The translations under genes were made by a program, and so were the position numbers. From IMG/VR virus record IMGVR_UViG_3300005512_000298, positions 1 through 25,394 of that record: DNA of 25,394 nucleotides. One strand, given 5' to 3'. A model generated the notes under the pieces. The model was not told the DNA's origin. It did no database searches and saw only the letters and a list, made by a program, of their open reading frames with translations. This document shows positions 6,124-25,121 of the stretch, piece by piece. The stretch comes from a virus (lineage: Duplodnaviria > Caudoviricetes). Positions within the stretch are counted from its first letter, which is position 1. Every line of letters starts with the position of its first letter.

Positions 6124-7058
6124 TGAAAGGATTAGATACAAACTTTTATGGTGATAATTTTAGGTGGTTTATCGCGCGAGTTGTAGATAACATGGATCCT
6201 GATAAACTAGGCCGTGTTCAGGTACAGATACGTGGTATTCACTCTACTGACCAACAAGAGATCCCCCAATCATCTTTACCTTGGGCATCTACAGTTCTAC
6301 CTACGACAGAGGGCGGAACATCTGGAATTGGTAAGATACCAAAGTTATTGCCGGGTGCATTAGTCTTTGGTATATTCTTGGATGGAAAAACATCTCAGCT
6401 TCCATTAGTTCTTGGTCATTTAAACCAAGAGGAGAGTCCTACATTACAGCAAAGAAGACGGGCTGCATTAAATCAAAATGCACCTAATCCTTCATTAGGT
6501 GCTAACGGTGGTGTAGATGGTACAACAGTTCGTAATGATGTAAAGAATCTGGATTTAGATGATAACACCTCTTATACAATAGCGCAACGTAGATTAGGTG
6601 CCATGATATTCTTTACTGATAATGGTTATACACCAGCTCAGGCTGCAGGTATAGTAGGTAATTTAGAAGCAGAATCTAATTTTAGTACAGTCGTGGTGTC
6701 TAGTGTTGAAGGTGAAACATCACAAGGTATTGCACAATGGAATCCCGATGTAGGAAGATTACAAGAATTAAAAGATTTCGCCGCTAATAGATTAAACAGC
6801 GATTGGCGTAAATTTAGTGTGCAATTACAGTTTGTGAAATATGAGTTAGAGAATTATGCATACTTCCAAAATTCATTGTTGAAAAAGGCTACTAAATTTA
6901 CTGGTGGTAAAGATAATAAAAATGCAACATGGATATTCTTAAGATATTACGAGAATCCACGTATAACTCCTACAGTTATAACAGAAAGAGAAGCATTTGC
7001 CAAAACAGCTTATGATCAGTTTACAGATAATTATATTACAAGTGCGGGGGCAGGATAA
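6123..7058 (+). CDS. gp5: gp5 N-terminal OB-fold domain fused to phage tail lysozyme (Phage_lysozyme2-like)
   Basis: WFIARVVDNMDPDKLGRVQVQIRGIH, LPWA, G..VFGIFLDG..SQLPLVLG (gp5 OB fold); then GYTPAQAAGIVGNLEAES...GIAQW...R...QLQFVKYEL...F.RYYE.P (tail lysozyme, about 6600-7022). Confidence 0.85.
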   Translation: MKGLDTNFYGDNFRWFIARVVDNMDPDKLGRVQVQIRGIHSTDQQEIPQSSLPWASTVLPTTEGGTSGIGKIPKLLPGALVFGIFLDGKTSQLPLVLGHLNQEESPTLQQRRRAALNQNAPNPSLGANGGVDGTTVRNDVKNLDLDDNTSYTIAQRRLGAMIFFTDNGYTPAQAAGIVGNLEAESNFSTVVVSSVEGETSQGIAQWNPDVGRLQELKDFAANRLNSDWRKFSVQLQFVKYELENYAYFQNSLLKKATKFTGGKDNKNATWIFLRYYENPRITPTVITEREAFAKTAYDQFTDNYITSAGAG

Positions 7059-8605: not shown

Positions 8606-8606
8606 T

Positions 8607-11225
8607 ATGACAACTACAAATCAAAATTTAGATACAAGTCTATCTACATCTGAGGGAACTACACAGTCTCAAGGTGTTAGTCCGGACAACAGCGAAGAAC
8701 CTACAGCTCAGTATCCGAAGTCTGAATACTTCTTTAGTTCTAATTTGAACTTTGCTGCAACAGGTGCAGCACGCAATGAGTTGTACACTGGAGGCGGTGA
8801 CCTAGGTCTTTCATTAGGTCTAGCTCCACAGGCACCATCGCAATATCCACATAATCAAGTCTCTGAATCAGTATCAGGCCACATCATCGAAGTTGATGAT
8901 ACACCAGGCAATGAAAGAGTTCTAATCAAGCATAGAACTGGATCAGGTGTAGAACTAAGAAGTGATGGTACAGTTCTAGTCACATCAACTAAAAACAAAG
9001 TTGAACTGACTGCAGACGATCATACCGTTGTTGTTGAGGGTGAGGGTAATCTTGTTTATAAAGGTAACTTAAATTTAAAGGTTACCGGTGATTTTAATAT
9101 TGAGTGCGCTAACTTTAATGTAAAGTCTAATGGTAACTACAATATGGATGTAAATGGTTCTCATAGAACTAAGGTGGGTGCATCACTTGGTGAGACTGTC
9201 GGACAAGGCACATCGAGAACATCTGCAGGTCAGGTTGTACATACATCGTTGGCTGGTCTATCAAATAACGTTAAAGGTACATTTAGTAACAACGTAGATG
9301 GTGATGCTAATTATGTGTCAAGTGGTTTGACGACACTAACATCAGAATCTCAGATTAATATTTCAACACCTGACCTAAATGCTGCAGCTACCAATCTTTC
9401 TGTATTTGGTGATGAGGGTACAATAGGCGGTGAAAATGTTATTATGTACAACTACAATATGTACACTCAAAAGAATATTAGAACTCTTACATTAGAAACT
9501 ACATCATTGTGGGCAGAGGAAAATGTGACAGCTACAGCCATGTATGCTGATACTTTCCATGGAGACCTAAACGGAGTTGCAGTAACTGCTACTGTTGCAC
9601 AATCACAAGCATATGCTGACCCTGTAGGTGGGGGTGGTGTAGGTTCTGCTGGATCTATTACAAACACGGCTGCAGATCCAGCAGCAATTGATGCTAAAGT
9701 GACAGCTATGCCATCAGCTCAATTACTTGAAACTTATCTAACAAAATCTCAAAATGGTGTCAAAACTGTTTCTATAGATGATGGAGACTTTATCAAGAAA
9801 AATGTAAACAAAACTGATGTATACGGTGGTCTATCAGATCTTAATCTAACTACAGGTCTTGTAAGATCCAGATTGAGAGATCCTAATAACTTAGCTGTAG
9901 AGGACTTCACCACACAAGCTGTAGCTGAAGGTGTTCTATCTGGTAACTATACAAATGTTGCACCTCCTGGTATTGGTAGGGTTGTCAGTGCAAATAGTAC
10001 TCCTAAGTTTGGTCAAATTAGATTTGGTAACGTTAAGATTACTTCAAATTCAGATCCATTCTTACCAACAAACCTAGTATCTAGTATCTTACCAGATCCT
10101 GTCTACAATCCAGACTTTGCGGTGTCTATCAATTCTAATACTAAATTAGCACCAGGTGTTTCTATCGCCAAGTTCTTAGGATCGACCGGACACCCTACTA
10201 ACTTAGGTTTCATTAAAGATGAACAACAATTGCGCCAGTTAGCTCGTCAATTATATCTACAAGCTGAGGTGATGCGTTCTATTGCAACGAACAAAGCTGC
10301 GTTTTCTGATTATAGACTGATCGTACAAGAGGGTGTTTATAGACCTGGTCCTGCAGAAACTGCGAGTGGATTAAATCTATTAAAACTTAAAGGTCAGGCC
10401 GTAGTTTATGACCTCGTTGATTTAGACGGTAGATCAGATCCAGCTGTCATATTTGACTTAGCTGAATACTGGAAAGACACACTACTATTCGATAAGATGA
10501 TTCTATCATATGACACTTATGATGCAGACAAAGAATTAGACGCACAGCTCATTATTATTATGCCAGAGATTAGTGATAGTTGGGTTGGCAGTTTTAATAG
10601 AACTGTAGAGACCCAGTTTAATGGTAATAAGCTGTCTCAAGGTGAATTAGTAGAATGTACAACCACACCTGTTACTACACAATCAGCTACTTCAAAGGTA
10701 GAATTACCTACTGGAGTAGGTGGTAGATACGGCCTAAATCTACTTACAATAAAAAACCCTAGTGGAGGTCCTCCTATTGTAGTACCAATTGTCGATACAT
10801 TAGCTGGAACAAGTCCAAAGATGAGACCTGGTGCTTTAGAAACAATGAAGAATCTACTCAACAATGAATATGCTAGAATGCAGGACTTCTACGAAGGACC
10901 ACTTACTATTAATGATGCTCTTGTTAAAGAAGGGTCTAGTCGTGATAAAAACGGTACTTCACAACATTATTTTGGCAGAGCATTAGATATTAATATTGTA
11001 GGGCTGAGTAACGGACAAAGAATCAAATTAGTTGATGCAGCCTTAAAAGCTGGATTTAAAGGCTTTGGTTTTGGTGAAAATATTTTACATGTTGATACAC
11101 GTCCTACAAGTCTTGCTGGTGTTCCAGGTGGATATAATGCCTGGGATTACACTAAAGTTGGTGATTCGCGTTGGGCCGGTAAATCATTTAATAATTACTG
11201 GAATGGTTATATTGAAAACCGTTGA
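8607..11225 (+). CDS. gp5: gp5 C-terminal spike (beta-helix) protein with C-terminal peptidase M15 domain
   Basis: YPHNQVSESVSGHIIEVDDTPGNERVLIKHRTGSGVE...DG and V.G.N repeats are the post-lysozyme part of gp5; C-terminal SQHYFGRALD...GFG....LHVDTR is the M15 Zn-peptidase H-x6-D...H signature. Confidence 0.82.
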   Translation: MTTTNQNLDTSLSTSEGTTQSQGVSPDNSEEPTAQYPKSEYFFSSNLNFAATGAARNELYTGGGDLGLSLGLAPQAPSQYPHNQVSESVSGHIIEVDDTPGNERVLIKHRTGSGVELRSDGTVLVTSTKNKVELTADDHTVVVEGEGNLVYKGNLNLKVTGDFNIECANFNVKSNGNYNMDVNGSHRTKVGASLGETVGQGTSRTSAGQVVHTSLAGLSNNVKGTFSNNVDGDANYVSSGLTTLTSESQINISTPDLNAAATNLSVFGDEGTIGGENVIMYNYNMYTQKNIRTLTLETTSLWAEENVTATAMYADTFHGDLNGVAVTATVAQSQAYADPVGGGGVGSAGSITNTAADPAAIDAKVTAMPSAQLLETYLTKSQNGVKTVSIDDGDFIKKNVNKTDVYGGLSDLNLTTGLVRSRLRDPNNLAVEDFTTQAVAEGVLSGNYTNVAPPGIGRVVSANSTPKFGQIRFGNVKITSNSDPFLPTNLVSSILPDPVYNPDFAVSINSNTKLAPGVSIAKFLGSTGHPTNLGFIKDEQQLRQLARQLYLQAEVMRSIATNKAAFSDYRLIVQEGVYRPGPAETASGLNLLKLKGQAVVYDLVDLDGRSDPAVIFDLAEYWKDTLLFDKMILSYDTYDADKELDAQLIIIMPEISDSWVGSFNRTVETQFNGNKLSQGELVECTTTPVTTQSATSKVELPTGVGGRYGLNLLTIKNPSGGPPIVVPIVDTLAGTSPKMRPGALETMKNLLNNEYARMQDFYEGPLTINDALVKEGSSRDKNGTSQHYFGRALDINIVGLSNGQRIKLVDAALKAGFKGFGFGENILHVDTRPTSLAGVPGGYNAWDYTKVGDSRWAGKSFNNYWNGYIENR

Positions 11226-11233
11226 TATAAATA
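11226..11233 (+). promoter_or_regulatory. T4-type late promoter TATAAATA upstream of gp25
   Basis: Exact motif immediately after the gp5C stop, 19 nt before the gp25 ATG. Confidence 0.85.
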
Positions 11234-11252
11234 AAAGAAAAAGATTTGAGTA

Positions 11253-11699
11253 ATGGCTACAACAAGAGTTCTATCAAAAGAAGACGGCAATTTAAATACT
11301 AGTACCCTCATTACTAGTAGAAGTCGTCTTTATTCTGATATCGATCTAACATTTACAGCCAAACCAAATGGCGAGATCTATAAGAAGAGAGATGCAGCAG
11401 CTGTAAAACAGGCTGTAAAAAATCTTATACAAACAAATCATTTTGAGAAACCATTTCAGCCAAGATTTGGTGCTAACATTAGAGAGTTTCTTTTTGAACT
11501 AGCTTATAACGATATTAAAACTGATATTAAAAGCAATATTATTAGATCTATACAAACATATGAGCCTAGAGCAAAAATATTAAAGATTGACGTCAACACT
11601 AGGCCTGATGAAAATAGTCTAGACGTCACGTTAGAATTTCAAGTAATCAACACTAAAGAGATTGTAGTGTTTACAACAGTTATATCAAGGTTAAGATAA
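11253..11699 (+). CDS. gp25: Baseplate wedge subunit gp25
   Basis: YSDIDLTF, D..AVKQAVKNLI.TN.FEKPF.P.FG.NIR..LFE, I..YEPRA, terminal L/I.RLR. Confidence 0.93.
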   Translation: MATTRVLSKEDGNLNTSTLITSRSRLYSDIDLTFTAKPNGEIYKKRDAAAVKQAVKNLIQTNHFEKPFQPRFGANIREFLFELAYNDIKTDIKSNIIRSIQTYEPRAKILKIDVNTRPDENSLDVTLEFQVINTKEIVVFTTVISRLR

Positions 11700-11700
11700 C

Positions 11701-13698
11701 ATGGCAACAACAATAGCTTCAACCGCTTTAGATTTTACAAATATCAAAAATAATCTAAAGACCTACCTAGCTGCTAGAGAAGAGTTCAGAGACTACAACT
11801 TTGAAGCCTCTGGTCTTTCTAACATCCTTGATGTGTTAGCTTATAACACACACTTCAACTCTCTGATTGCTAACTTTGCACTTAACGAATCTTATCTAAG
11901 TACTGCACAATTGAGAAGTTCGGTTGTATCTTTGGCTGAGGGCATTGGTTATATTCCTGATACTGACACGGCAGCACAGGCTACAGTTAATATTAGTCTG
12001 TCATCATCTGATGCTGGTCGTGATGCTGTTATCTCATTGCCTGCTAGAACAACATTTACAACTTCAGTTGATGATGTAAACTATACGTTCCAGACAATTG
12101 AAACATATTATGCTACTGATGATGGTACTGGATTCTATGAATTTGTAAATGCTAATGGTTCAAATGAGTTACCTATCTATGAGGGCACTCAAAAGACAAA
12201 GACATTCCTAGTTGGGGAGTATGAGGATAATCCTACATATGTAATTCCTGATGCTAACATTGATGCTGATACTGTGACTGTACGTGTCTACGAAAGTACA
12301 ACAAGTTCAACATTTTCTGTTTACACTAACATTATTAATGCTACAACTATTAATGCTCAGTCAACTATTTACATTCTAAAAGAAGCACCAAACGGTTACT
12401 TTGAACTTTCATTTGGTGACGGTGAAACATTTGGTGTTGCCCCTCAAGCAGGTTCGAAGATCGAGGTCTTATATCTTTCTACAAAGGGTGAACCAGCTAA
12501 TGGTGCTACATTATTCACCGCTGCAAATAATTTTACAGGTGGTGGTATTACTGATGCAGCTGTTACAGTTACGACTGTTACAAACAGTGTTGGCGGTGAG
12601 GTAAAAGAATCTATCGAGTCTATTCGTAAGAATGCGCCATTTCAGTATGCAACTCAGAATAGAATGGTGACAGCTGCTGACTATTCATCTCTTATTCTTC
12701 GTAACTATTCTACATTGATTAAAGATATCAAAGCCTGGGGTGGTGAGGATAATACGAATCCTGAATTTGGTGCAGTCTATGTCTCTATATTATTTGAAGA
12801 TGATGTGACAGCCTTAACTCAAGCAAACACTAAGTTAGGTATTAGGCAATTGTCAGATGACCTAGCTATTATATCATTTAGCCTTAGATTTGCAGACCCG
12901 GTAACTACATATATTGAGGTTCAAAACTTCTTTGACTTTAATCCTAAACTAACATCATTGACAGTAAATTCTGTACAATCTAATGTACTAGACATTATAT
13001 CTCAATACTTTACAGATAATACGGGTGGTTTTGACCAGTCATTTAGACGTTCTAATTTGCTTACACTCATCGATGAATCTAACCCTGCTATCTTATCATC
13101 TAGAGCTGAAGTAAAGATGCAACAACGATTTGTGCCTACAGCCCCTTCAATTTCCAGTACAATTCAGACATTGACTAACTTTACTATCCCTAATGATGAA
13201 CTTAATAACGCAATCAGATTAATTTCACAAAACAGTTATAATGCTGCAGCCTCCTTAATTTCTCAATATTCAACTAGTTCTTACGCTTCAATCAGAACTT
13301 CTATTACAGCTATTGCTAATGGTAGTACATTTACATTAAGATTCCCAACAGCCATTGCTGCACCAGATGATGTAAACTTAAGAATTACCAGCTCATCATT
13401 TGTTTATGAGGGCGTTTCATGTAGGATTCAAAATGCTTTGAGCAGTAACACACTACAGATTATTGCAAATGGAACAAATGACGTAATTGTCGATAATTTG
13501 GGTTCATATGCTGCAACGACAGGTGTAGTAACACTGACATACTTTACACCTTCATCTATTGTTGGTTCGGTTAACTATATCAAACTATCTGTTGTACCAG
13601 CTAATCAGAGTTCTATTGCACCAACAAGAAATAATCTGCTTGTTTATGATGCCGATGCTTCTGGCGCTACTGCAATCACAACCACCGCGAATGTTTAA
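11701..13698 (+). CDS. gp6: Baseplate wedge subunit gp6
   Basis: LDF..IK.NLK.YL, DYNFEASGLS.ILDVLAYNTH, NESYL.TAQLRSSVVSLA..IGY.P, FGDG, ESIESIR.NAP..YATQNR.VTA.DY, AWGGED. Confidence 0.93.
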   Translation: MATTIASTALDFTNIKNNLKTYLAAREEFRDYNFEASGLSNILDVLAYNTHFNSLIANFALNESYLSTAQLRSSVVSLAEGIGYIPDTDTAAQATVNISLSSSDAGRDAVISLPARTTFTTSVDDVNYTFQTIETYYATDDGTGFYEFVNANGSNELPIYEGTQKTKTFLVGEYEDNPTYVIPDANIDADTVTVRVYESTTSSTFSVYTNIINATTINAQSTIYILKEAPNGYFELSFGDGETFGVAPQAGSKIEVLYLSTKGEPANGATLFTAANNFTGGGITDAAVTVTTVTNSVGGEVKESIESIRKNAPFQYATQNRMVTAADYSSLILRNYSTLIKDIKAWGGEDNTNPEFGAVYVSILFEDDVTALTQANTKLGIRQLSDDLAIISFSLRFADPVTTYIEVQNFFDFNPKLTSLTVNSVQSNVLDIISQYFTDNTGGFDQSFRRSNLLTLIDESNPAILSSRAEVKMQQRFVPTAPSISSTIQTLTNFTIPNDELNNAIRLISQNSYNAAASLISQYSTSSYASIRTSITAIANGSTFTLRFPTAIAAPDDVNLRITSSSFVYEGVSCRIQNALSSNTLQIIANGTNDVIVDNLGSYAATTGVVTLTYFTPSSIVGSVNYIKLSVVPANQSSIAPTRNNLLVYDADASGATAITTTANV

Positions 13699-14702
13699 TG
13701 ACACAACTAGATAAAACACTCAGAGATAATAATAGACGGGATTTAAACCTTCAGAGATCTGAGGTTAAAAACGTATTACCTGAACATTTTATCGATGAAT
13801 ATCCGAACATCATTACACTCCTAGAAGCTTATTATGAGTGGATGGAAGAAACAGGTAATCCAGATCAAAAAGTAAGAGATCTATATCGTTCAAGGGATCT
13901 AACACAAGTTGATACTGATCTTTTGCAATACATTGAAGATGAGATTCTACTAGGTCAAGCTTACTTTGGTGGATTTATCAATAAACGTGAAGCTTCGAAG
14001 TTTTCTAATATTCTTTATAGATCTAAGGGCACTCGTTATAGTATCCAACAGTTCTTCAGAGCTTTCTTTGGCACAGACCCTGAAGTCATATATCCTAAGG
14101 AACAGGTTTTTAAAGTTGGCCCTCTTGTAGATTATTCTTTAGATAGTAGTAATGCTGCAGGTGAACAAATCTTATCGAATGCATCTAAGATAGGTGCTGA
14201 GTCACAGAGATTTTTGACTGACGATAAACTATATCAAGTATTAGCAATTCTAATTAAGTCTGATATTCCTATTGATACTTGGAGAGAAGTCTATAAATTA
14301 TTTGCACATCCAGCTGGAATGTATCTTGGCGGTCAGGTTCAAATAGCATCTGTAAACGCAACGGGTGTCGACACACTCATGCCTGAAATTGCTAAGGTTG
14401 TTTCTACTGACGTTGTTACAACTGGTGAAGCTCTGTTCGATCTTACCAGCCAGCCTTCTGCAGATCTTACCGGCCTTATTGATAGTGCTAGCACAACTTA
14501 CCGTATCGATCTACTACCACTTGATTCTGATCAGACTCTATCTGAACTTGATAGTAGCTATCCAAATATTCTTACTGCTCTATCACCGTCACTACCGACA
14601 TTCGATGATAATGATTCTGATGGCACAGCAGTAACAATGGATACAACAAGAAGACAACAAACTTTGGATCAGGATTGGTATGATTCAATTGGAACTTACT
14701 AA
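13698..14702 (+). CDS. gp7: Baseplate wedge protein, short gp7-like
   Basis: LP..F..EYP..I.LLEAYYEWME, LYRSKGT..SI..FFR.FFG, YQ...ILIKS, W...YK...HPAGM: gp7/tail-P2-I-like motifs; directly follows gp6. Confidence 0.7.
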   Translation: MTQLDKTLRDNNRRDLNLQRSEVKNVLPEHFIDEYPNIITLLEAYYEWMEETGNPDQKVRDLYRSRDLTQVDTDLLQYIEDEILLGQAYFGGFINKREASKFSNILYRSKGTRYSIQQFFRAFFGTDPEVIYPKEQVFKVGPLVDYSLDSSNAAGEQILSNASKIGAESQRFLTDDKLYQVLAILIKSDIPIDTWREVYKLFAHPAGMYLGGQVQIASVNATGVDTLMPEIAKVVSTDVVTTGEALFDLTSQPSADLTGLIDSASTTYRIDLLPLDSDQTLSELDSSYPNILTALSPSLPTFDDNDSDGTAVTMDTTRRQQTLDQDWYDSIGTY

Positions 14703-14708
14703 AACTAT

Positions 14709-14716
14709 TATAAATA
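14709..14716 (+). promoter_or_regulatory. T4-type late promoter TATAAATA
   Basis: Exact motif in the 39-bp intergenic gap, followed by GAGGA SD and the ATG at 14742. Confidence 0.85.
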
Positions 14717-14741
14717 CTCTTAAGTAAATTGAGGAAACCCT

Positions 14742-15761
14742 ATGGCAAGGCAAAATGTTAATACCGGCTCAACTGCCAATGACGGAACAGGTGATACACT
14801 TCGTACGGCTGGTACTAAAATTAATGAAAACTTTATTGAATTGTATTCACAATTAGGTGGAGGTGACTCTGGTACATCACTTACAACTGCTGTTAGATTA
14901 GTGGACAGCGGTCTAGAGTATGTAGGTGTTACAAATAATTCTGTACTTACTCATACAGAGGGTGCTTCAAAACTAGTATTTACTTTACCTGATTCAGAGG
15001 GAGCGGTTGTAATAAGTAGTGCAACTCAAACATTGACAAATAAAACAATTGATAGTGCTACATTAAATAATCCTATATTAGATGGCATATCAATTAATGA
15101 TACAAATGCTAGTCACACTTATAACATAAAACCAGGAAATTTAACATCAAAAAATATTAATATTAACTTACCGGTACTTGCTGATAGTGATACATTAACA
15201 TTTAATGCTCAGACACAGACATTAACAAATAAAACACTGACCTCACCGAAAATTGGTACAGCTATTCAAGATGTGAATGGTGCTGAACTATTAAAGGTTA
15301 CAGCTACAGCTTCTGCAGCAAATGAACTAACATTAGCTAATGCTGCAGCTGGTAATAGACCGACTATTTCAGCAACTGGTACTGATACAAATGTAGGTAT
15401 TAATATAGAGAATAAAGGTACAGGTGTAACTAGACTTGGTAAGATAGCCTATTCCAGTGCGCAGATGGACTCCTCTGGCGATAGAGATATGGAAAAAAAT
15501 ACGTTTATTGTATTGAATCCAACATCAGCACAAAACTTTATTATAAGAGATGGTAGTGTTAGTGGTGAATTAAAGATTATTCTAAATAGAGGCACAGCAA
15601 CAGCAACTCTTGAAGCAGATTCGGGCGCTGGGGCTACAATGGCAGCTGGTAATGTCAGATTAGCTCCAAATGCTATGTCTCAATTTATTTATGAAAGTGT
15701 TGAGAATAAATGGCATATGATCGGTACAGACTCAGCCGGCAACGGCATAGCAATAGTTTAA
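14742..15761 (+). CDS. Baseplate/tail-fibre connector protein with gp9/gp10-type N-terminus
   Basis: MARQNVNTG..ANDGTGDTLR.AG.KINENF.ELY is the gp9/gp10 N-terminal motif; two TQTLTNKT fibre-type repeats follow. Confidence 0.7.
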   Translation: MARQNVNTGSTANDGTGDTLRTAGTKINENFIELYSQLGGGDSGTSLTTAVRLVDSGLEYVGVTNNSVLTHTEGASKLVFTLPDSEGAVVISSATQTLTNKTIDSATLNNPILDGISINDTNASHTYNIKPGNLTSKNININLPVLADSDTLTFNAQTQTLTNKTLTSPKIGTAIQDVNGAELLKVTATASAANELTLANAAAGNRPTISATGTDTNVGINIENKGTGVTRLGKIAYSSAQMDSSGDRDMEKNTFIVLNPTSAQNFIIRDGSVSGELKIILNRGTATATLEADSGAGATMAAGNVRLAPNAMSQFIYESVENKWHMIGTDSAGNGIAIV

Positions 15762-15773
15762 TGAGATAAGAAC

Positions 15774-17117
15774 ATGGTAGCAATAATTACAGATAGAGTT
15801 AAAAATCAATTAGTAAATTCTCTTCTTACAGAGTTTGAGGATTCTTCTAATCGATACTACATTGCACTTGGTGCATCTGAGGCTTGGGACAGTACTGATA
15901 CTCCACCTACTCCCACAAATACAGAACGTGAGATTCGTCAGTTTAGATACAAAATGCAGTCAATCAAAGCTGTACTAGACACATCTCTTGTAGTAGTACG
16001 TTATAACTGGTCATCAGGTACTCTTTATCCGGCTTATAATGATAACTCAGTTGCGCAATCCTCACGCTACTATGTTATCACAGATGAGAACAACGTTTAT
16101 GTTTGTATTCGTCAAGGTAAAGACTCGAATGGTAATGCTGTTACATCGACTGTACAACCAACTAGCACATCAGCTACAACTTTGACAGAATTAGCTGATG
16201 GTTATATTTGGAAGTATCTGTACACAATTTCAGCAGCTGACGCTACAAGATTCTTGACAGCCAACTTTATGCCAGTTCAAATAATCGACTCAGCAGCTCC
16301 TGGAGATGCGTACTATAACCAGTATTTAGTTCAACAAGCTGCGACCGCTGGTCAAATCATTGGTTACAGAGTAACAGCAGGTGGTAGTGGTTTCACAGGA
16401 ACTCCTACTATTTCTGTTGTTGGTAATGGTAAGGGTGCTCATGCTCGTGCTGTTATTACATCTTCAAATACTATTGGCGCTGTTGAAGTTGATGAGTCAG
16501 CTGGAGGTTTTCCATTTGGTTCTGGCTATGATTATGCTAACGTAACAGTGAGTGGCGGTGCCGGCACGGGCGCGACTGTAGTACCTATCTTCGCTCCGCC
16601 TAATGGTATCGGTGCAGATCCAACAAGAGATCTGAGAGCAAGAGCTGTTAACTTTAATGTTTTGGCTGACGGTACTGAAGAAGGGGTATTCGTTACTGGT
16701 AATGACTTTAGACAATTAGCATTGTTGAAAAACCCATTACAGTATGATTCAACAGCTGCATTTACCGGTAATACAGCATTAGCACTAAGACAGATGAGAT
16801 TGTCTGCATCAGACGATTTTCAAGCTGACCAAGTTATTACTGGCGGTACATCTTCTGCTCAAGCATACATCGATTATTATGATGACTCAAATACAATTTG
16901 GTATCACCAAACTGAAGAAACTGGGTTTACACCATTTACTGATGGTGAAATTGTGACTACAACGACAGCTACTGCAAATAGAACAGCTGACTCTGCTGCA
17001 ATTGTTCCAGGATTTGATACTTATTCAGGTGAAATGCACTATATAGATAATAGAAACCTTTCTGTTACAAGATCTGCTGACCAAACAGAAGATGTTAAAA
17101 TTATTATTCAACTTTAA
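15774..17117 (+). CDS. gp8: Baseplate wedge subunit gp8
   Basis: YY..LG....W, RYNWSSGT.Y..Y, YYVITDE.NVYVCI, DGYIWKYLYTI, F....FMPV, NDFRQ..LLKNP, SGE..YIDNR....R..DQTEDVKIIIQL. Confidence 0.9.
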   Translation: MVAIITDRVKNQLVNSLLTEFEDSSNRYYIALGASEAWDSTDTPPTPTNTEREIRQFRYKMQSIKAVLDTSLVVVRYNWSSGTLYPAYNDNSVAQSSRYYVITDENNVYVCIRQGKDSNGNAVTSTVQPTSTSATTLTELADGYIWKYLYTISAADATRFLTANFMPVQIIDSAAPGDAYYNQYLVQQAATAGQIIGYRVTAGGSGFTGTPTISVVGNGKGAHARAVITSSNTIGAVEVDESAGGFPFGSGYDYANVTVSGGAGTGATVVPIFAPPNGIGADPTRDLRARAVNFNVLADGTEEGVFVTGNDFRQLALLKNPLQYDSTAAFTGNTALALRQMRLSASDDFQADQVITGGTSSAQAYIDYYDDSNTIWYHQTEETGFTPFTDGEIVTTTTATANRTADSAAIVPGFDTYSGEMHYIDNRNLSVTRSADQTEDVKIIIQL

Positions 17118-17126
17118 GGATATACT

Positions 17127-20063
17127 ATGGTATCTCAAGTAGTTCAAAACACATTTGTATCGACCTATAAAGACGACTTTAGGGATAGTGACAATTACCA
17201 TCGCATCTTGTTTAATACAGGTCGTGCGTTACAAGCACGTGAGCTTACACAACTACAAACTATTATTCAAAAAGAAATTGAACGGTTTGGTAGATATATA
17301 TTTAACGAAGGCTCAGTTATTTCATCAAATTTGGGTACATCTGCAACACGTTCATTTGCTGCACATTACGTAAAGCTTGATACTTCAACAAATCCATTAC
17401 CAACAGATTACGCAAGTCTAGAAAATACATTTGTAACCAATGATTTAGCAAGTCCAGTTACTGCTAATATTATTAAAGTAATTCCAGCTACTGGTGCTGA
17501 TCCTGCAACTCTTGTTTTAACTTATACTGATGGTGGTGATAATAGCTCTTTAGATACTACAACTCCACTTACATTTTTAGCTGGTCAAAATTTAACAACT
17601 GATAGTGGCACTCTTACTATTCAAACAATCGATACAGTTGCAAATCCAGCTGTTGGTAGAACATCGCTTATAACAATACCTGAAAATGAAGTTTTTTCTT
17701 TAGGTCATTTTGTCTATACGCCTAAACAAACTTTAGTTTTAAGCAAGTATAGCGATGAGTTTAATGGTGTAATTGGTTATAAGGTAATTGAAAGTGTTGT
17801 AACAGTTTCAGATGATTTGGCATTATATGATAACGCAGGATCTACTCCAAATTTAACATCTCCCGGAGCTGACCGTTACAGAATAGTTTTGACATTAATA
17901 GATGAATCTGATGTTGCTGCAGGTGAAACGTTTATACCTCTCATCAAAATGAGAAATGGCAATCTAGAAATATTACAAAACACCGATAATATTTTGAATA
18001 GATTGGGTGATACATTAGCCACTAGAACTTCAGAAATTAATGGTAACTTCGTAACTCGAGAAAAACAAGGTTTTAATTTACAAGTATTGCAAGATAGTGA
18101 TAATGATTATCTAAGATATGTGATTAGACCAGGCACTGCATATGTTAAAGGTTATAGAATTAGTACTACAGAGAACCAGGAATTTAGAGTCAAGAAACCT
18201 AGAACTGATCCTACTGATATTCTAAGAATACCTAATCCTACTCTTGCTACTAAATTTGGTAACTACTTCTTAGCAGATTCAATGTATGGTATGTTGGGTC
18301 TAATTGATAGTAATGCAACCGTTAACATTTATGATTCGGCTGATTTAGCAAACACAAAAATAGGTACAGCTAGAGTAAGACATATTGATAAATTAGAAGA
18401 TAAATTTAGAATTTATGTTCATAGTGTTTCAATAGATTCAAATGGAAGTGGTAGCTTTTATGACATTACTACAGCTCGTAGCTTAGGTCTAAGTGCTACT
18501 AATAAAGCTAATCTATTATTAACAGATAACCAACAAAACGTAAAGATACAAGAACCTGGTAATGGTGCACTGTTATTTAATTTACAGTATGCTGTTCCTT
18601 ATGAAGTTGGTCAAGCAACTATGGAGGTTGCTGAAGTCTTTTCAACTACAACTACTGGAGCTGGTAAAGGTGTATTTAATACATCTGCAGTTGATGAAGT
18701 TTTTGCCCAACAAGCTGATTGGATTCTTAAATATGATAGCGATGGGGCAGTTGTAACATCATTAACTGTAGAAAGTGGTGGTGTTGGATCTACATCAGTT
18801 AGGATTGGTGGATTGACAGCTAGTCAAGACGTTCAACTATTGGCTTATGTCAATATAACAGCTGATCCAATTAGTGTAAGTATACAAAATAACCAAACGT
18901 CTACTGGTTCACTTACTAATAATCAATATATCATACCGAGTGTAAATGTACAAAGATTAATCAGTGTAGTCGATAATACTACTTCTCAAGATATAACATA
19001 CAAATTTGTATTTGAAAGAAAGTCATCATTAGATTTTAAAGATGTAAGTGTTCTAAAATTAAAGGGTGAGTATTCAGCACCAGCTGGAACTATTACTGTA
19101 ACATATAATGATCATTCAGAAGGTAGCGGTGATTATTATAATGTGAATTCTTATTCATCTTATACGTACAGCGAGATTCCATTTGTTCCTGGTGATGGAG
19201 TATCACTTAATAACCAATTAGACTTTAGACCATCTAAAAATACATCTGGAACAGGATTTAGCGGGTCAGGGTCTAAAGTATTGAGACTTCCAAGAAATAA
19301 TAGTGTGATTAATTTTGACTATATTGAATATTATAAAGGACGTACTGATACAATTTACATTGATCCATATTCAAGGTCTATTAAATTATTACAGGGTGAA
19401 AATGAGGGTGTATATGCTGAACCACAAAATTTGCCGGGAAACATTTTGCCTTTGCATCAGATTGCTTTAAATCCTTACACTTATACAAATGAAGATCTGA
19501 CAAGAATTAAATATTCTCACAAGCACTATAGACAAGACGATATCAGTAGTCTAGACACTAGAATTTCAAGCTTAGAGGAATTATCAGCTCTTAGCTTGCT
19601 AGAAACTAGTGCTATCAATATTTCAGTTACAGATGCTGAGGGTAGAGAAAGAACTAAACTAGGTGTTACAGCTGATCCATTCTTAAATCACAGTCAGTCA
19701 TTAGTTAAAGGTAATGTTGAATTTAGAGCCAGTATAGATATGGGAAGAGGAATGATGAGACCTAAACAGGTCCGTAACATGGTTCCATTATGGTATGATT
19801 CAGATAATTCAACTGGTATTAAAAGATTTAATAATGTTTTATTGCCTAAATTTACAGAAAATGTACTTATTAATCAAACAGTTGCGTCAAGATCCACTGA
19901 TGTAAATCAATTGTTTGTTCCGAGATTTGTAGGATCGATGACATTAAATCCTGATCATGATTACTGGACTGAAAGACGTACTGTAGACAATGGGACAACT
20001 AAAGTGGTATTTAAAAACGGCGATGTATCAAGCTATGATAAATTCCAGGAATATGGCGGATAA
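17127..20063 (+). CDS. VrlC-like / DUF4815 baseplate-associated structural protein, N-terminal part
   Basis: Y.DDF....NYHRILF..GRALQARELTQLQTI.Q..IERFG..IF.EGS, L.DNA.S.PN..SPGADRY, PG.AYV.GY, LDFRP, Y.GR.D, Y...DI..L..RI..LE....LSLLE. Confidence 0.8.
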   Translation: MVSQVVQNTFVSTYKDDFRDSDNYHRILFNTGRALQARELTQLQTIIQKEIERFGRYIFNEGSVISSNLGTSATRSFAAHYVKLDTSTNPLPTDYASLENTFVTNDLASPVTANIIKVIPATGADPATLVLTYTDGGDNSSLDTTTPLTFLAGQNLTTDSGTLTIQTIDTVANPAVGRTSLITIPENEVFSLGHFVYTPKQTLVLSKYSDEFNGVIGYKVIESVVTVSDDLALYDNAGSTPNLTSPGADRYRIVLTLIDESDVAAGETFIPLIKMRNGNLEILQNTDNILNRLGDTLATRTSEINGNFVTREKQGFNLQVLQDSDNDYLRYVIRPGTAYVKGYRISTTENQEFRVKKPRTDPTDILRIPNPTLATKFGNYFLADSMYGMLGLIDSNATVNIYDSADLANTKIGTARVRHIDKLEDKFRIYVHSVSIDSNGSGSFYDITTARSLGLSATNKANLLLTDNQQNVKIQEPGNGALLFNLQYAVPYEVGQATMEVAEVFSTTTTGAGKGVFNTSAVDEVFAQQADWILKYDSDGAVVTSLTVESGGVGSTSVRIGGLTASQDVQLLAYVNITADPISVSIQNNQTSTGSLTNNQYIIPSVNVQRLISVVDNTTSQDITYKFVFERKSSLDFKDVSVLKLKGEYSAPAGTITVTYNDHSEGSGDYYNVNSYSSYTYSEIPFVPGDGVSLNNQLDFRPSKNTSGTGFSGSGSKVLRLPRNNSVINFDYIEYYKGRTDTIYIDPYSRSIKLLQGENEGVYAEPQNLPGNILPLHQIALNPYTYTNEDLTRIKYSHKHYRQDDISSLDTRISSLEELSALSLLETSAINISVTDAEGRERTKLGVTADPFLNHSQSLVKGNVEFRASIDMGRGMMRPKQVRNMVPLWYDSDNSTGIKRFNNVLLPKFTENVLINQTVASRSTDVNQLFVPRFVGSMTLNPDHDYWTERRTVDNGTTKVVFKNGDVSSYDKFQEYGG

Positions 20064-20072
20064 GGAAGAAAA

Positions 20073-21137
20073 ATGGGAACTGAAACATATTACGTCAGTG
20101 TTACTAATTCAAGAAGCAATTATACAGGCTTTAATGATGTAACAATCGCCAGACCTAAGTTTATATACTTTCAAGCTACAGGTCTCAGACCAAATGCTCG
20201 CCACTTTGTGTTTTTTGATAAAGTTAATGTTACTAACTATGTTAATACAAGTATTGGTACTATAAATGATTTTAACAATCTATCTAGAAACGACCCTAAG
20301 AGAAATCCTGGTGAAAAATATATAAATGAAACAGGATTTCCTACAGCTTTAGGTGGACCCACAGCTTCTATTTTTTCTGATGATGAAGGTAAAATAGATG
20401 GTGTATTTTACTTGCAAAGCAATAGCACAACTAATTTTCCTACAGGAACAAGAATATTATCTGTATTAGATATTAGTACGTACGCACCAGACGCAGCAAC
20501 ATCTTATTGTAGCGGACAATTTACTATTGATGGTGGAATTGAAAATTATTCTGTTTCTTATTATACAACACAAGAAGCAAGGACTAGATATGTAGCTGAT
20601 CCAGCACCAGATCCTGATCCACCTAGTAATAATGGTAGTTCGACTCCTGTTGTAAATCCGGCGGGGGCTGGTGCTTCAACAGATCCAGATCCAGTTGTAA
20701 GTAAAAAAGAGCCGAAGTATCTAATTACAGGGGATGAAAGATATCAAAATATTAACGGTATCGGTTATCTGTTTAAAACAGATCCAACGACTGGAGGTAG
20801 TGTTGTTGTTCATAAATCTGAAACTCTTGGAGAAATTTTGGGAGAAGAAAAGATTGGATATGGTACAGGCAGGATTACATCCTCTGGAGTAAATTTAGGA
20901 GTAGGTGATGCTCTTGTTAATGCTGGTTTTGGAGGACTAGATGGAATGTCGACGACTAATATTTTGGCATCCGCCTCTGGTGGTCGGGGTGCAGTGGTTC
21001 CGACTGGTGGTGATACAGCATTTAAATTAGATCCCGCAGGTGGTGGTTGGGTAGATCAATTTAGTGGTGAAGGTCTGTTTACAAACGGTGGTAAAAATGG
21101 AATTAACACATATTTTACAAATCAAGCTAGCTCTTAG
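20073..21137 (+). CDS. VrlC/DUF4815-like middle fragment with Pro/Gly-rich C-terminal extension
   Basis: ARPKFIYFQATGLRPNARHFVFFD.VNVT.Y, SDDEG.I.G.F.L, F.TGTR.L resemble the central block of VrlC-type proteins; AAGGA SD. Confidence 0.6.
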   Translation: MGTETYYVSVTNSRSNYTGFNDVTIARPKFIYFQATGLRPNARHFVFFDKVNVTNYVNTSIGTINDFNNLSRNDPKRNPGEKYINETGFPTALGGPTASIFSDDEGKIDGVFYLQSNSTTNFPTGTRILSVLDISTYAPDAATSYCSGQFTIDGGIENYSVSYYTTQEARTRYVADPAPDPDPPSNNGSSTPVVNPAGAGASTDPDPVVSKKEPKYLITGDERYQNINGIGYLFKTDPTTGGSVVVHKSETLGEILGEEKIGYGTGRITSSGVNLGVGDALVNAGFGGLDGMSTTNILASASGGRGAVVPTGGDTAFKLDPAGGGWVDQFSGEGLFTNGGKNGINTYFTNQASS

Positions 21138-21165
21138 GCTAGGAAAAATTTAATAGGAATTAGAA

Positions 21166-22839
21166 ATGGCAGCTTATATGAATCTCACTGACGTATCGTC
21201 ACCATTAGCTCAGACATTTAATGTTACTGAGCCCGGTGGAGTTATGCTAACAGGTGTCGGTCTTTATTTTTTTAGTAAACCTGGTGCTAGTGAAGGTAAC
21301 TTTCCTGTTACGGTAGAGTTAAGACCAGTTACTGAGGGTGGTGGACCTAGTGCTAGAGAAATTTATCCAGGAACTAAAGTAGTTAAATCTAAAGCTGATA
21401 TCACGGCTAGCACAACTTATAATGCAACTACAGGTGAAACTAAATTTGATTTTCCAGTTCCTTTTCATGTGCCAGAAAATACACAACTAGCACTAACCGT
21501 TTCAACAAATGCAGCTCCTGGCGCTTATAAAATTTGGATAGCTCAGCTAGGTGATTTTGAATATGGTAGCACATCCAGAAGGGTAGTAGATCAGCCCAAT
21601 GTAGGATCCTTCTTCACGTCATCTAATGGTACTACTTGGACACCAGAACAAAATAGAGATCTTACATTTAAAGTTTATAACGCTCAGTTTATTAATCAAA
21701 ACTCAGTGGCAACTTTATATGCCGATACACCACCACCGCGTCTTTTATCTGATATTTCAGCTAATGATAATCCATTAACATTTACTTCTGGAGACTCTGA
21801 TATCAAGGTTAGTCACCCACAAAGTGGGTTTCAAATTGGGGATAACGTTAGAATTTCTGGTCTAGATAGTGCTACGACTTATTATGGCATATTTGGACAT
21901 AGCATTATGGGCAAAAAAACAATCAAATCTGTAGATCCATATGGGTATGTATTTGCTGCTGACTCAGCTGCTGATTCATCGGGTCGTGGTGGCGGAACAG
22001 GCATAATTGCAGATGAACAATTAATTGTTGATACATTCAAGTTAAACTTACCTGATTTTGTGCCACAGTCTACAACTATAAGCTATAAAGCGAATATGAC
22101 CCGCGGTAAATCATATGCTGGTAATAATACACCATATGAAAGACAAACAACGTTTAATATTAACAATAAAGCATGGTGGGAACCAGAAAAACCGTTTTTA
22201 ATAGCATCTGAAATTCAAGAAAGTGATAGATTGAGCAGTTTGCCTTCATCAGTCTTCAGCGTTGTATTTAACACTGAAAACGTAAATGTTGCTCCATATA
22301 TTAATATTAATGCTGCATCATTAGAAACCGGTCATAATGTAATTGACTATGCAGACTCAGCTGCGGTATTTGCTGGAGCCAGTGGACTAGACTCTGATGG
22401 TACAGGTGGACGTAATATCTTAACTACAACACCATACATCGCTGAAAGTAGTTTTATTGGTGGTTCAAACGCTGCTAAATTTATAGCAAAACCAGTTTTG
22501 TTGGCTTCACCCGCATCTTCAATTAAGGTACTTGTCGATGCACAAAGAACATCTCATTCTGATTTTGAAGTATGGTATAGAACTGCTAAATTGGGTGATG
22601 AGACTAATTATCTAGGTATAAAGTCTTGGAATAAGTTTAGCACATCATCTATTCCTCCAAACACATCAAATTACGATGATATGCCAGTTGATGAGGATTT
22701 CCAAACGTTTAGAGAATACAGCTTCTCACAATTTAGTATACCTGATTTTGATGTATATCAAATTAAAATCGTAATGAAGAGTAAGAACTCGGCAAGACCA
22801 CCACTATTCCAAAATTTAAGAACAATAGCGACAGTTTAA
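21166..22839 (+). CDS. VrlC/DUF4815-like C-terminal fragment
   Basis: PLAQTF.V, LTGVGLYF.SKP, PV.VELRP, T.F.F..P, GSFF.SSNG.TWTP.Q..DL.FK.Y.A.F, V.L..PA.SIKV, F.EY.F, F..YQIKIVM.S.N...PP....LR.IA. Confidence 0.75.
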   Translation: MAAYMNLTDVSSPLAQTFNVTEPGGVMLTGVGLYFFSKPGASEGNFPVTVELRPVTEGGGPSAREIYPGTKVVKSKADITASTTYNATTGETKFDFPVPFHVPENTQLALTVSTNAAPGAYKIWIAQLGDFEYGSTSRRVVDQPNVGSFFTSSNGTTWTPEQNRDLTFKVYNAQFINQNSVATLYADTPPPRLLSDISANDNPLTFTSGDSDIKVSHPQSGFQIGDNVRISGLDSATTYYGIFGHSIMGKKTIKSVDPYGYVFAADSAADSSGRGGGTGIIADEQLIVDTFKLNLPDFVPQSTTISYKANMTRGKSYAGNNTPYERQTTFNINNKAWWEPEKPFLIASEIQESDRLSSLPSSVFSVVFNTENVNVAPYININAASLETGHNVIDYADSAAVFAGASGLDSDGTGGRNILTTTPYIAESSFIGGSNAAKFIAKPVLLASPASSIKVLVDAQRTSHSDFEVWYRTAKLGDETNYLGIKSWNKFSTSSIPPNTSNYDDMPVDEDFQTFREYSFSQFSIPDFDVYQIKIVMKSKNSARPPLFQNLRTIATV

Positions 22840-22840
22840 T

Positions 22841-23056
22841 ATGAATAGATTTTCTAAGGTACAAAATCAACCTGATTATATCAAGGACAATTTAACAGGT
22901 GCTATTGTCCATATAAATAGTACCAAATCTATGAATGAAAGAAAAAGATTAAATATAGAAGATCAGAAACAACAAGAAATTGAAAAACTAAAGAATGATG
23001 TAGGTGAAATAAAGTCTTTGTTGCATCAATTATTAGAGAAGAATTCAAATGGCTAA
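22841..23056 (+). CDS. Small coiled-coil hypothetical protein of the type found after VrlC-like genes in T4-like phages
   Basis: KV..QPD.IKD..TGAIV.IN and EIEKLKNDVGEIKSLL.QLL; tightly packed between neighbours. Confidence 0.65.
   Translation: MNRFSKVQNQPDYIKDNLTGAIVHINSTKSMNERKRLNIEDQKQQEIEKLKNDVGEIKSLLHQLLEKNSNG
22912..22919 (+). promoter_or_regulatory. Possible internal late promoter TATAAATA for the tail fibre gene
   Basis: Exact motif, but inside the 71-aa ORF, about 130 nt before the fibre ATG; could be chance in AT-rich DNA. Confidence 0.4.
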
Positions 23057-25121
23057 GATACCACCAATTAATCTATCTTCAAGTTTTAACACTTTCAGAA
23101 CTAGTTTTAATAAACTAGTTGATTCTGTTGGTGATCTTGCTACTCTTACGACTGATACAGATAGTGATGTTGTAAAAGCTATTAACTCAATCGATAGCAA
23201 TTTAGGCACTAGATCTTCTCTTACAACGTCAAATGCTAACGTTGTTACAGCTATTAACGAATTAGATGCTGAATTGGGTACAATTACTTCAGGTGCGATG
23301 GGCACAACCGCAAGCACTGTATCTGGTGCAATTGCAGAACTAGATAGTAGATTAGACTCCATTAATAACACACAACTAAATACCGCAGCTTTATATGTTA
23401 GTGGTAATGCACAAATTGACGGTACATTAACAGTTGATGGTACAGTTAACTTTAAAGCTGGTTCATCGGGCTCAGTTGCTCTTGGTGATGATAATACTGA
23501 TAATGTTGTGTTTAATGCTGATGTAAATTCAAATATTATTCCAAATACTGATAGTGCCTATTCACTAGGTAGCGATGATAAAAGATGGAAGCATGTATAT
23601 ACGCAAAACCTATCAGCAGATTCTTCTACTATCACAAGTTTAAATGTAACAGGAACTTTGACTGCTGGTTCTCTAACTGTTGATTCAGCTCATATTCAAT
23701 CTATTGTAGATAGCAATCTAGTTGCCATTAACACATCAATTGCAGCAGCGCTGGATTCAGCAGAAGCACAAGCGATGATCGACAGCAATCTGGTTGCTAT
23801 CAACGCTTCTATAGCAGCTCAATTAGATTCTGCTGAAGCTCAGGCAATGTTTGATAGTAACTTTGCTGACTCAAATGTCATTGCTACAATAGCTAATAGA
23901 TCTATTGCAAATAGTAAACTAACTAATAATACGATAACTGTAAATGGAATTTCAATTGCACTTGGCGCAGCTGGTAATATTGATATTACAGACTCTGGAT
24001 CTTCAGTAGCTCTTATTAAGTCAACAATGAAAGCTGACTCAGATACAGGTATTCATTATGACTCTGCTACAGCAAGATTTAGTTTAGATAAAATTCCAAA
24101 TTCAAGTATAACAAATTCAACTTTCTCTGTAAATGGTGTATCTGGTAATTTAGGTGCAAACATCACAGTTGACATTGTTGATTCAGCTGAGGTTATTGCA
24201 TTAGCTAGAGGTGGCTTAAGCGTAACAGACGCTGGTGGTGATGGCTCATTAAGCTATGCTTCTGGTACAGGAGTGTTTACATATACAGGTCCATCAGCTT
24301 CTGATGTAAGAGCTCACTTTACAGCTGGTGAGGGAATTGATATTACTGCTGGTGAAATCGCTGGTGAAGATGCAACAACTGCTAATAAAGGTATTGCTTC
24401 ATTTAATAGTGCATCATTCAGCACATCTAGTGGTGCAGTAAGCATTAAAACTGGTGGTGTATCAAACGATCAACTAGCGGGTTCGATTGCAAATGCTAAA
24501 CTAGCAAACTCAACATTCTCGGTAAATGGTGTATCCGGAAGCTTGGGTGCTAATATTGAGATTCCTACTATTGACTCAAACGGAACTATTAATCTGATTG
24601 GTGGTCAGTTTACTGCGGCACCAGAAACAATAACTAGAACTGGTGATTTAAGATTTAATGTTAGTGGTGATATTTACTTAGATGCTGACGGTGGCCAAAT
24701 TTTTCTACAGGATAACGGCGCATCAGGTCATAGAGCTACGATAGATTTAACTGGTGGTGCTGATACTGTAATATTAAAAACTGGAACATCTACTACTAAC
24801 ACGACATGGAGTGGTGAGGATATGACTGTTGTAGGTGATATCACATCACAATCTGATATGCGTGTTAAAGAGAACGTTGAAACAATTACTGACGGACTAG
24901 AGATAGTAGATACACTTAGAGGCGTTTATTATAATAAAATCGGTGAAACTGATCGTAAAGTCGGCGTCATCGCTCAGGAAGTTGAGACTGTTTTACCTGA
25001 AGTTGTAAAGACAGATGACGGTGGTATGAAGTCAGTAGACTATAGTAAGATGATTGGTGTATTGATAGAAGCTATTAAAGATCTAAAACACGAGATTGAT
25101 GATCTAAAAAGAGGGCTCTAA
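23049..25121 (+). CDS. Tail fibre protein with C-terminal intramolecular chaperone (peptidase S74 domain)
   Basis: N-terminal G.L..L.T....V.AINE repeats, Ser/Thr/Gly-rich shaft, then SDMRVKEN....L..V..LRGV.Y...GVIAQEVE.VLPEVV...VDY.KM..VLIEAIKDL from 24852. Confidence 0.85.
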   Translation: MAKIPPINLSSSFNTFRTSFNKLVDSVGDLATLTTDTDSDVVKAINSIDSNLGTRSSLTTSNANVVTAINELDAELGTITSGAMGTTASTVSGAIAELDSRLDSINNTQLNTAALYVSGNAQIDGTLTVDGTVNFKAGSSGSVALGDDNTDNVVFNADVNSNIIPNTDSAYSLGSDDKRWKHVYTQNLSADSSTITSLNVTGTLTAGSLTVDSAHIQSIVDSNLVAINTSIAAALDSAEAQAMIDSNLVAINASIAAQLDSAEAQAMFDSNFADSNVIATIANRSIANSKLTNNTITVNGISIALGAAGNIDITDSGSSVALIKSTMKADSDTGIHYDSATARFSLDKIPNSSITNSTFSVNGVSGNLGANITVDIVDSAEVIALARGGLSVTDAGGDGSLSYASGTGVFTYTGPSASDVRAHFTAGEGIDITAGEIAGEDATTANKGIASFNSASFSTSSGAVSIKTGGVSNDQLAGSIANAKLANSTFSVNGVSGSLGANIEIPTIDSNGTINLIGGQFTAAPETITRTGDLRFNVSGDIYLDADGGQIFLQDNGASGHRATIDLTGGADTVILKTGTSTTNTTWSGEDMTVVGDITSQSDMRVKENVETITDGLEIVDTLRGVYYNKIGETDRKVGVIAQEVETVLPEVVKTDDGGMKSVDYSKMIGVLIEAIKDLKHEIDDLKRGL
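23709..23861 (+). repeat. Tandem 72-bp (24-aa) coding repeat, 2 copies plus start of a third
   Basis: DSNLVAINTSIAAALDSAEAQAMI / DSNLVAINASIAAQLDSAEAQAMF / DSN. Confidence 0.9.
23901..24563 (+). repeat. Three dispersed ~27-aa fibre repeats (at 23901, 24093, 24483)
   Basis: SIANSKLTNNTITVNGISIALGA / IPNSSITNSTFSVNGVSGNLGANI / SIANAKLANSTFSVNGVSGSLGANI. Confidence 0.8.

Follow-up and report, generated by a model that had tools for sequence, protein, structure and literature searches.

IMG/VR record IMGVR_UViG_3300005512_000298, analysed here over its whole length of 25,394 bases (the window), is a tail-gene fragment of a T4-like phage. Its baseplate genes form an inner block around the hub and an outer block that ends with the tail fibre (Table 1). 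In the products of these genes we analysed the dipeptide Asp-Ser (DS) followed by a small residue, which an earlier note on this DNA had singled out as a possible site of virion modification. The window is carried by seawater and estuary metagenomes, at least half of its words being contained in 18 of the 24 listed runs; no RNA run carrying it was found among the runs listed. The closest annotated phage is C48C1, classed under Kyanoviridae with no host stated in its record, whose gp8 and gp6 are 34% and 39% identical to the window proteins. A closer relative, G004, has a gp8 92% identical to that of the window. Matches to gp8 in genome bins were taxonomically mixed and assigned no host.

Table 1. 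Genes and gene blocks of the window, with the family matched where there is one.
Feature	Position	Strand	Match
Sulfotransferase-family gene	1352..1948	-	PF03567
Inner baseplate and hub block (gp48, gp53, hub, gp5 in three genes, gp25, gp6)	2485..13698	+	
gp7-like wedge protein	13698..14702	+	PF23786
gp9/10-like fibre connector	14742..15761	+	PF07880
gp8 wedge protein	15774..17117	+	PF09215
VrlC-like, N part	17127..20063	+	DUF4815, phrog_358
VrlC-like, middle part	20073..21137	+	
VrlC-like, C part	21166..22839	+	
71-aa virion protein	22841..23056	+	phrog_473
Tail fibre with C-terminal S74 chaperone	23049..25121	+	PF13884

Expected numbers of DS were computed from the composition of each protein, for an outer set of eight proteins (3770 aa) and an inner set of eight (3724 aa). 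The outer set holds 55 DS against 25.8 expected (observed/expected 2.1, Poisson p about 4e-7), and still 36 against 18.5 when the fibre is left out. The inner set holds 4 against 18.5 (observed/expected 0.22, p about 6e-5), none of them followed by a small residue. Ser follows Asp at 55 of 270 positions in the outer set versus 4 of 234 in the inner set (Fisher p 4e-12), and among the 400 dipeptides DS shows both the largest outer excess and the largest inner deficit. In 3000 whole-protein shuffles and 3000 shuffles within 30-residue windows, no outer set reached 55 and no inner set fell to 4; the windowed shuffles rule out local composition as the cause. None of SD, DT, NS and ES exceeds its expected number; SD stands at 23 against 25.8 in the outer set, and DT at 24 against 27.6 in the window. 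The third residue is A, D, N, G, S or T in 49 of the 55 outer sites, against a background of 50% (binomial p 1e-9). Hexamers coding for DS number 55, 1 and 14 in the three frames and the codons are mixed, so that the signal lies at the protein level and a DNA-level cause such as restriction-site or repeat bias is ruled out. The hand counts of the earlier note (6, 8, 7, 9, 0, 6, 0 and 19 in the outer proteins, in the order of Table 1, and 4 in the inner ones) thus proved exact, as did its count of small third residues and its placing of the signal in the protein, and the enrichment survived the correction for composition and the SD and shuffle controls.

The excess is carried by four proteins that are significant singly: the gp7-like protein (6 DS against 2.7 expected, with codons starting at 14142, 14481, 14523, 14550, 14613 and 14682), the gp9/10-like protein (8 against 1.5, using 8 of its 18 Asp), gp8 (7 against 2.4) and the fibre (19 against 7.2, all within residues 25-509). 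The enrichment that the note had described across the outer proteins holds for these four. It does not reach significance singly in the VrlC-like N part (9 against 6.2) or C part (6 against 3.5), where a small residue follows in 8 of 9 and 6 of 6 cases. The VrlC-like protein (17127-22839) occupies three genes in the subclade of the window, two in some relatives and one gene of 1700-2000 aa in most. The 71-aa protein (0 against 0.3) is uninformative. So is the S74 chaperone, in which only 0.43 DS are expected; its lack of DS, used as an argument in the note, carries no weight.

The pattern is present in most of 79 related viral loci. Of 184 loci bearing gp8, 109 were retained below 80% identity, and DS followed by A or D (DS[AD]) was scored in gp7, gp9/10, gp8 and VrlC. 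Loci with at least 3 times the expected DS[AD] in at least 1000 aa were called motif-rich (70) and those below 1.8 times motif-poor (27), the remainder being intermediate or short; these cut-offs were set post hoc, with the data already seen. In a gp8 tree built by FastTree only, with 105 rows and the motif masked, one branch of support 100 gathers all 71 high rows, including the window, with 6 of the 7 intermediate and 2 of the 27 low ones. HTVC008M, Mosig, Melnitz, S-SM2, P-SSM4 and pf16 lie outside this clade and have no excess. The check on homologues elsewhere that the note had proposed therefore places the motif in one clade of marine T4-like phages and finds no excess outside it. Inner proteins show 0.43 of the expected DS (236/547) in the 70 motif-rich lineages and 0.93 (138/148) in the 27 motif-poor ones, and the inner avoidance is coupled to the outer gain (Spearman -0.60 over the 63 loci in which each set reaches 1000 aa). 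As the lineages are related, the counts are taken to describe one origin and not 70 independent events. In C48C1 the excess is lost from gp7, gp8 and VrlC, and DS-A/D is kept in the fibre repeats, the sheath (residues 119-139) and the capsid protein (residue 149), which we interpret as a nested partial loss. The gain of DS outside and its loss inside are real, strong and clade-wide.

The letters of the motif were pooled over 317 outer proteins of the motif-rich group and 80 proteins of the motif-poor group. In the former, DS[AD] occurs 1191 times against 190 expected (6.26 times expectation) and DS[NSG] 549 times against 295 (about 1.9 times). DS followed by a hydrophobic, aromatic or basic residue, Glu or Pro is depleted (0.37-0.51 times; 0.51 for DS[ILVM]). 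DST is at 0.74 times, so that Thr, which the note had counted among the third residues, does not belong to the motif. Related tripeptides are flat or depleted: DT[AD] 0.52, NS[AD] 0.64, ES[AD] 0.46, DA, DN and DG before A or D 0.75-1.14, and DT[ILVM] 1.01 times. DS[AD] itself stands at 0.66 times in the motif-poor group. When the window was compared with eight relatives, Ser after Asp was conserved in 172 of 247 aligned cells (70%), other Ser in 41% and neighbouring residues in 51-60%. In 35 gp8 orthologues the sites cluster near residues 22-24, 39-40, 171-177, 240-242, 322-329, 371 and 406-407, recurring per loop with a register that slips by 1-3 residues.

The position of the sites in the particle was then considered. 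In T4, gp7 to gp11 sit at the baseplate periphery, and domains I and II of the sheath protein gp18 (residues 88-345) face the solution while III and IV make the core, according to the part of PMC3004832 consulted. The sheath protein of G011, a complete genome of the clade, aligns with the T4-type sheath at residues 6-89 and 319-618, and the gap between corresponds to gp18 domains I and II. With segment limits taken from this alignment, eight clade genomes and eight outside genomes were searched. In the clade the exposed segment holds 27 DS against 15.4 expected, 25 of them before a small residue, and the core has 3 against 13.9; outside the clade the exposed segment holds 8 against 14.8 and the core 16 against 12.2, a split that differs from that of the clade (Fisher p 3e-5). 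Lying within one protein, the aligned sheath is the strongest test of outside versus inside. Among other clade orthologues, the neck proteins gp14 and gp15 and the capsid protein also have an excess of DS before a small residue, while such sites are few or absent in gp13, the tube, gp25, gp6, gp5, protease, scaffold and terminase. A capsid segment holds 18 DS against 7.0 expected, with limits drawn after the sites had been seen, and is given little weight. In an AlphaFold model of gp8 (mean predicted local distance difference test, pLDDT, 87.9), six of the seven window DS fall in coil or turn, one in a strand and none at a helix start. Mapping on structures, as the note had proposed, thus places the sites in predicted loops of gp8 and in the putatively exposed domains of the sheath.

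Two proteins outside these sets depart from expectation. A gp2-like DNA end protector (753-1337, minus strand) has an excess of DS (3 against 0.6; 11 against 4.0 in the clade), which is not the motif, the third residue never being small. A 665-aa protein (G011, L203:9010-11004), probably the ribonucleotide reductase alpha subunit by likeness to the annotated gene of C48C1, is DS-poor in the clade (2 against 13.9) and not so in orthologues outside it (10 against 12.9), unlike most non-structural proteins.

We consider it probable, with some reserve, that D-S-(A/D), less often D-S-(N/S/G), is a sequon for phage-made O-glycosylation of virion subunits before assembly. T4-like virions assemble in the cytoplasm. 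The Ser hydroxyl of the motif would be the acceptor, glycosylated on free subunits by a cytoplasmic enzyme that the phage encodes. Modification would precede assembly, because an enzyme acting afterwards would not require the purging of sites that end up buried. The outcome would be a glycan coat over head, sheath, neck, baseplate rim and fibres. Of the original proposal that these serines accept a surface modification, the surface-directed tag is thus supported by those tests named in the note that were run; the link to Bacteroidota fails, the argument from the S74 chaperone has no force, and the sulfotransferase of the window does not track the motif.

The motif could instead be purely structural, an Asx-turn, beta-hairpin turn or helix N-cap spread through the surface loops and fibre repeats of the clade by descent and repeat expansion. 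Surface loops are rich in D and S by nature, the modelled gp8 sites lie in turns, and at gp8 position 117 NA, NT, DA and NS interchange as an Asx-turn would allow. Helix caps and Asx-turns have characteristic residue patterns, and many fibre-repeat sites, such as LDSAEA, look like helix caps and suit a capping box. Caps and turns nevertheless tolerate N, T or S in place of D and other residues in place of S, and such variants are flat or depleted here. The 30-residue shuffles do not account for the excess, none of the seven gp8 sites is at a helix start, and homologous folds outside the clade manage without it. A structural role also gives no reason for the purge of DS from inner proteins and sheath core. 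We therefore regard this explanation as unlikely.

Candidate enzymes were looked for among the genes of the clade. Of 191 open reading frames (ORFs) of G011, 76 were found in at least four of five clade genomes, and only 7 of these 76 are missing from all five outside genomes. The seven are a primase-like gene, two for small proteins, two GT25 glycosyltransferases, one for a weakly glycosyltransferase-like 269-aa protein and one for a 200-aa protein that resembles the flagellin glycosyltransferase Maf; four of the seven are glycosyltransferase-like. The clade shares a cassette of two GT25 genes, a GT8-like gene and the Maf-like gene, and around the Maf-like gene GT8-like genes occur in 76 of 80 loci and GT25-like genes in 68-72 of 80. 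GT25 was found in 16 of 17 motif-rich records, not in C48C1 (0/1), and in 1 of 8 outside. A search of 57 records, mostly fragments, found the Maf-like gene in 20. Among records at least 80% complete, 5 of 5 motif-rich ones have it (two of which had been found via the gene itself), as does C48C1, and none of the 8 motif-poor ones does. In a collection of 50,697 phage records it was found in C48C1 only. The Maf-like gene of G018 is in two pieces (C1:133762-134353), probably by an assembly error; it is whole in G010, whose baseplate proteins give identical counts. In G004 the cluster contains five GT25 genes, methyl- and sulfotransferases and the 200-aa protein, which has no Pfam match there. This 12-kb cluster (L091:4753-16734) also encodes a radical SAM/SPASM protein and a 2OG-Fe(II)-like protein, and its make-up varies widely between relatives.

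A model of the 200-aa protein (pLDDT 92.5) has Maf as its best fold match (5MU5, Z 11.1, root-mean-square deviation 3.7, 167 residues aligned), followed by SteA (Z 9.7), Cst-I (9.7), an MptE-type pyrophosphokinase (8.8) and ST3Gal (8.4). Its predicted fold is that of the central (PF01973) domain of Maf. It has a GNG motif and is a single domain of about 200 aa, compared with 632 residues in 5MU5. PF01973 is matched weakly in 17 of 47 members, none above the cut-off, and the neighbours in the ESM Atlas are unnamed viral clusters. Should the glycosylation reading hold, the enzyme that starts the chain is most likely this protein with its Maf/sialyltransferase fold, an assignment that we make tentatively. 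The GT25 and GT8-like neighbours would lengthen the chain, and methyl- and sulfotransferases would decorate the glycan. In its full form the proposal, which we put at somewhat less than an even chance, is that D-S-(A/D) is recognised on free subunits in the host cytoplasm by a single-domain enzyme of Maf fold, which starts a glycan over the whole outer particle, so that the proteome has been rewritten both ways and the map of DS predicts exposed faces.

The sulfotransferase encoded in the window was also considered as a reader of the motif. Its homologues occur in G004, G001 and G042 and were not found in G011, G018, G043 or C48C1; of 6 complete or near-complete clade genomes tested, 2 have one. 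This patchy distribution rules it out as the reader, and it may at most be an accessory decorating enzyme. The note had proposed a test of whether the motif tracks modifying enzymes; the conserved glycosyltransferase cassette agrees with such a link, and the sulfotransferase does not.

Several observations weigh against glycosylation by the cassette. Within the outer block the VrlC-like middle part is an exception (0 DS against 1.9 expected), and the cap-like fibre repeats mentioned above count on the same side. Non-structural orthologues are equally poor in DS in the clade (129/176.8) and outside it (109/150.3, both 0.73), even though an enzyme in the cytoplasm would encounter them. The window, a 25-kb fragment, itself contains no cassette; the one considered here is in its relative G004. 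C48C1 keeps the Maf-like gene, has no GT25 and has lost most DS from gp8 and VrlC; G008 keeps the cassette yet is DS-poor in gp8 and VrlC; and in the motif-rich G045 (61% complete) neither a Maf-like nor a GT25 gene was found. Since the motif arose once, any clade-specific gene co-occurs with it, and the apparent link between cassette and motif is confounded by single ancestry. The Maf-like fold is common to pyrophosphokinases and SteA (Z 8.8-9.7). By sequence the protein gave no significant match in PDB sequences, Pfam (0 of 46 distant relatives) or PHROGs, and Foldseek with the model gave no E below 0.001. Mafs proper are described, in the portion of PMC11339370 consulted, with additional domains and without a known sequon, and both points speak against the assignment. 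Cyanophage glycosyltransferase clusters are read, in the part of PMC12801897 consulted, as acting on the host surface or on DNA, and by this parallel the cassette may be unrelated to the motif.

Some of these points would suit a phage-made modification of Ser other than a sugar, such as a phosphate or pyrophosphate ester, sulfate or acyl group. Every piece of sequence evidence for a tag fits this equally well. MptE and thiamine pyrophosphokinases are further structural matches of the Maf-like protein (Z 7-8.8), the PF01973 matches of that protein are weak, and sulfo-, methyl- and carbamoyltransferases are present in the clade. However, the genes consistently kept next to the Maf-like gene encode glycosyltransferases, the homologues of the window sulfotransferase are confined to three relatives, and there is no kinase among the seven clade-restricted genes. 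A non-sugar tag thus seems improbable to us.

We give very little credence to a host enzyme as the reader, such as the general O-glycosylation system of Bacteroidota, whose sequon the note had invoked, or another host protein-modifying enzyme. The genome bins with gp8 matches are taxonomically mixed, and D-S-A, D-S-S and D-S-G fall within the extended Bacteroidota motif, D-(S/T)-(A/I/L/V/M/T/S/G/F/C), as given in the part of PMC8729774 consulted. According to the same text, that system requires export from the cytoplasm and accepts D-T and hydrophobic third residues. Here DT is not enriched, DT[AD] and DS[ILVM] are depleted, and DSD, outside the Bacteroidota motif, is a main form, so that the link to this sequon was not borne out. 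Binding of seawater Ca2+ or Mg2+ by DS-D/A loops on the virion surface would suit the several sites of the form DSDG or DNDSDG and the presence of the phage in seawater metagenomes, but is scarcely credible given that DSA, the form met most often, lacks a second acidic residue, that DAD, DND, DGD and DTD types are not enriched and that other marine T4-like phages have no motif.

Other features of these genomes may be mentioned. Three genes (6123-11225) make up the gp5 hub-needle, each with a wall-lytic domain of a different kind: one joins an OB fold to a phage tail lysozyme (PF18013), another has an amidase (PF01510), and the third, the gp5 C-part, matches peptidase M15 weakly at its end. The gp53 protein (3486-4769) has 427 aa, compared with about 240-260 in many relatives, and its insert, at about residues 142-262, matches repeats of large virion structural proteins. 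G011 carries a full-length isocitrate lyase gene (L208:18524-19726), and an ORF of C48C1 starting at L099:44175 is a putative isocitrate lyase by resemblance.

If glycosylation of the DS motif is correct, an abundant lineage of marine phages would carry a three-residue address all over the outside of its particles. Many ocean phages would then be coated with glycan or otherwise modified, with a bearing on decay, grazing, particle sticking and host recognition, and a small cytoplasmic enzyme that glycosylates Ser at a portable tag would become available. The claim can be tested directly, since the annotated phage collection includes a clade member, C48C1 (OQ984149). In the literature searched, which left out most subscription journals, we found no earlier report of an Asp-Ser motif in virions. 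The present tests add the split within the sheath, the correlation between DS loss in inner proteins and DS gain in outer ones, the seven clade-restricted genes and the partial loss in C48C1.

The proposed system shares features with several that are known, each compared here from the parts of the sources consulted. In the Bacteroidota system Asp likewise precedes the acceptor hydroxyl, and selection against the motif has been argued for proteins meant to stay unmodified (PMC8729774). That system differs in being periplasmic and dependent on export, and in taking Thr and hydrophobic third residues, which are depleted here; DSN, like DSD, is outside its motif. Staphylococcal O-GlcNAcylation by SdgB and SdgA uses a soluble glycosyltransferase acting on Ser in a minimal D-S-D, and SdgB glycosylates the tripeptide DSD itself (PMC8561734, section 3.1), which is one of the two main forms here. 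In the phage clade DSA is equally common. SdgB, of GT-B fold, modifies adhesins along extended tandem SD repeats, whereas the sites described here are dispersed and SD is not enriched. None of the seven clade-restricted genes is SdgB-like, and no search aimed at SdgB was made. Maf O-glycosyltransferases attach sugars directly to surface Ser/Thr of a polymeric appendage, the flagellin filament, and the predicted fold of the 200-aa phage protein is like that of their central domain. The phage protein is 10% identical to Maf and has neither its three-domain architecture nor its helical C-terminal part; it is a candidate enzyme by its modelled fold. Virion glycosylation has been reported for few phages and, in the texts consulted, at the C-termini of subunits. 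In mycobacteriophages, glycosyltransferases act on the phage's own capsid and tail subunits, the reported glycans being C-terminal on capsid and tail-tube subunits (PMC12619734, PMC10877033). The virion glycan that we infer for the marine clade would differ in its sites, the tripeptide being internal, dispersed over many outer proteins and avoided by the tail tube.

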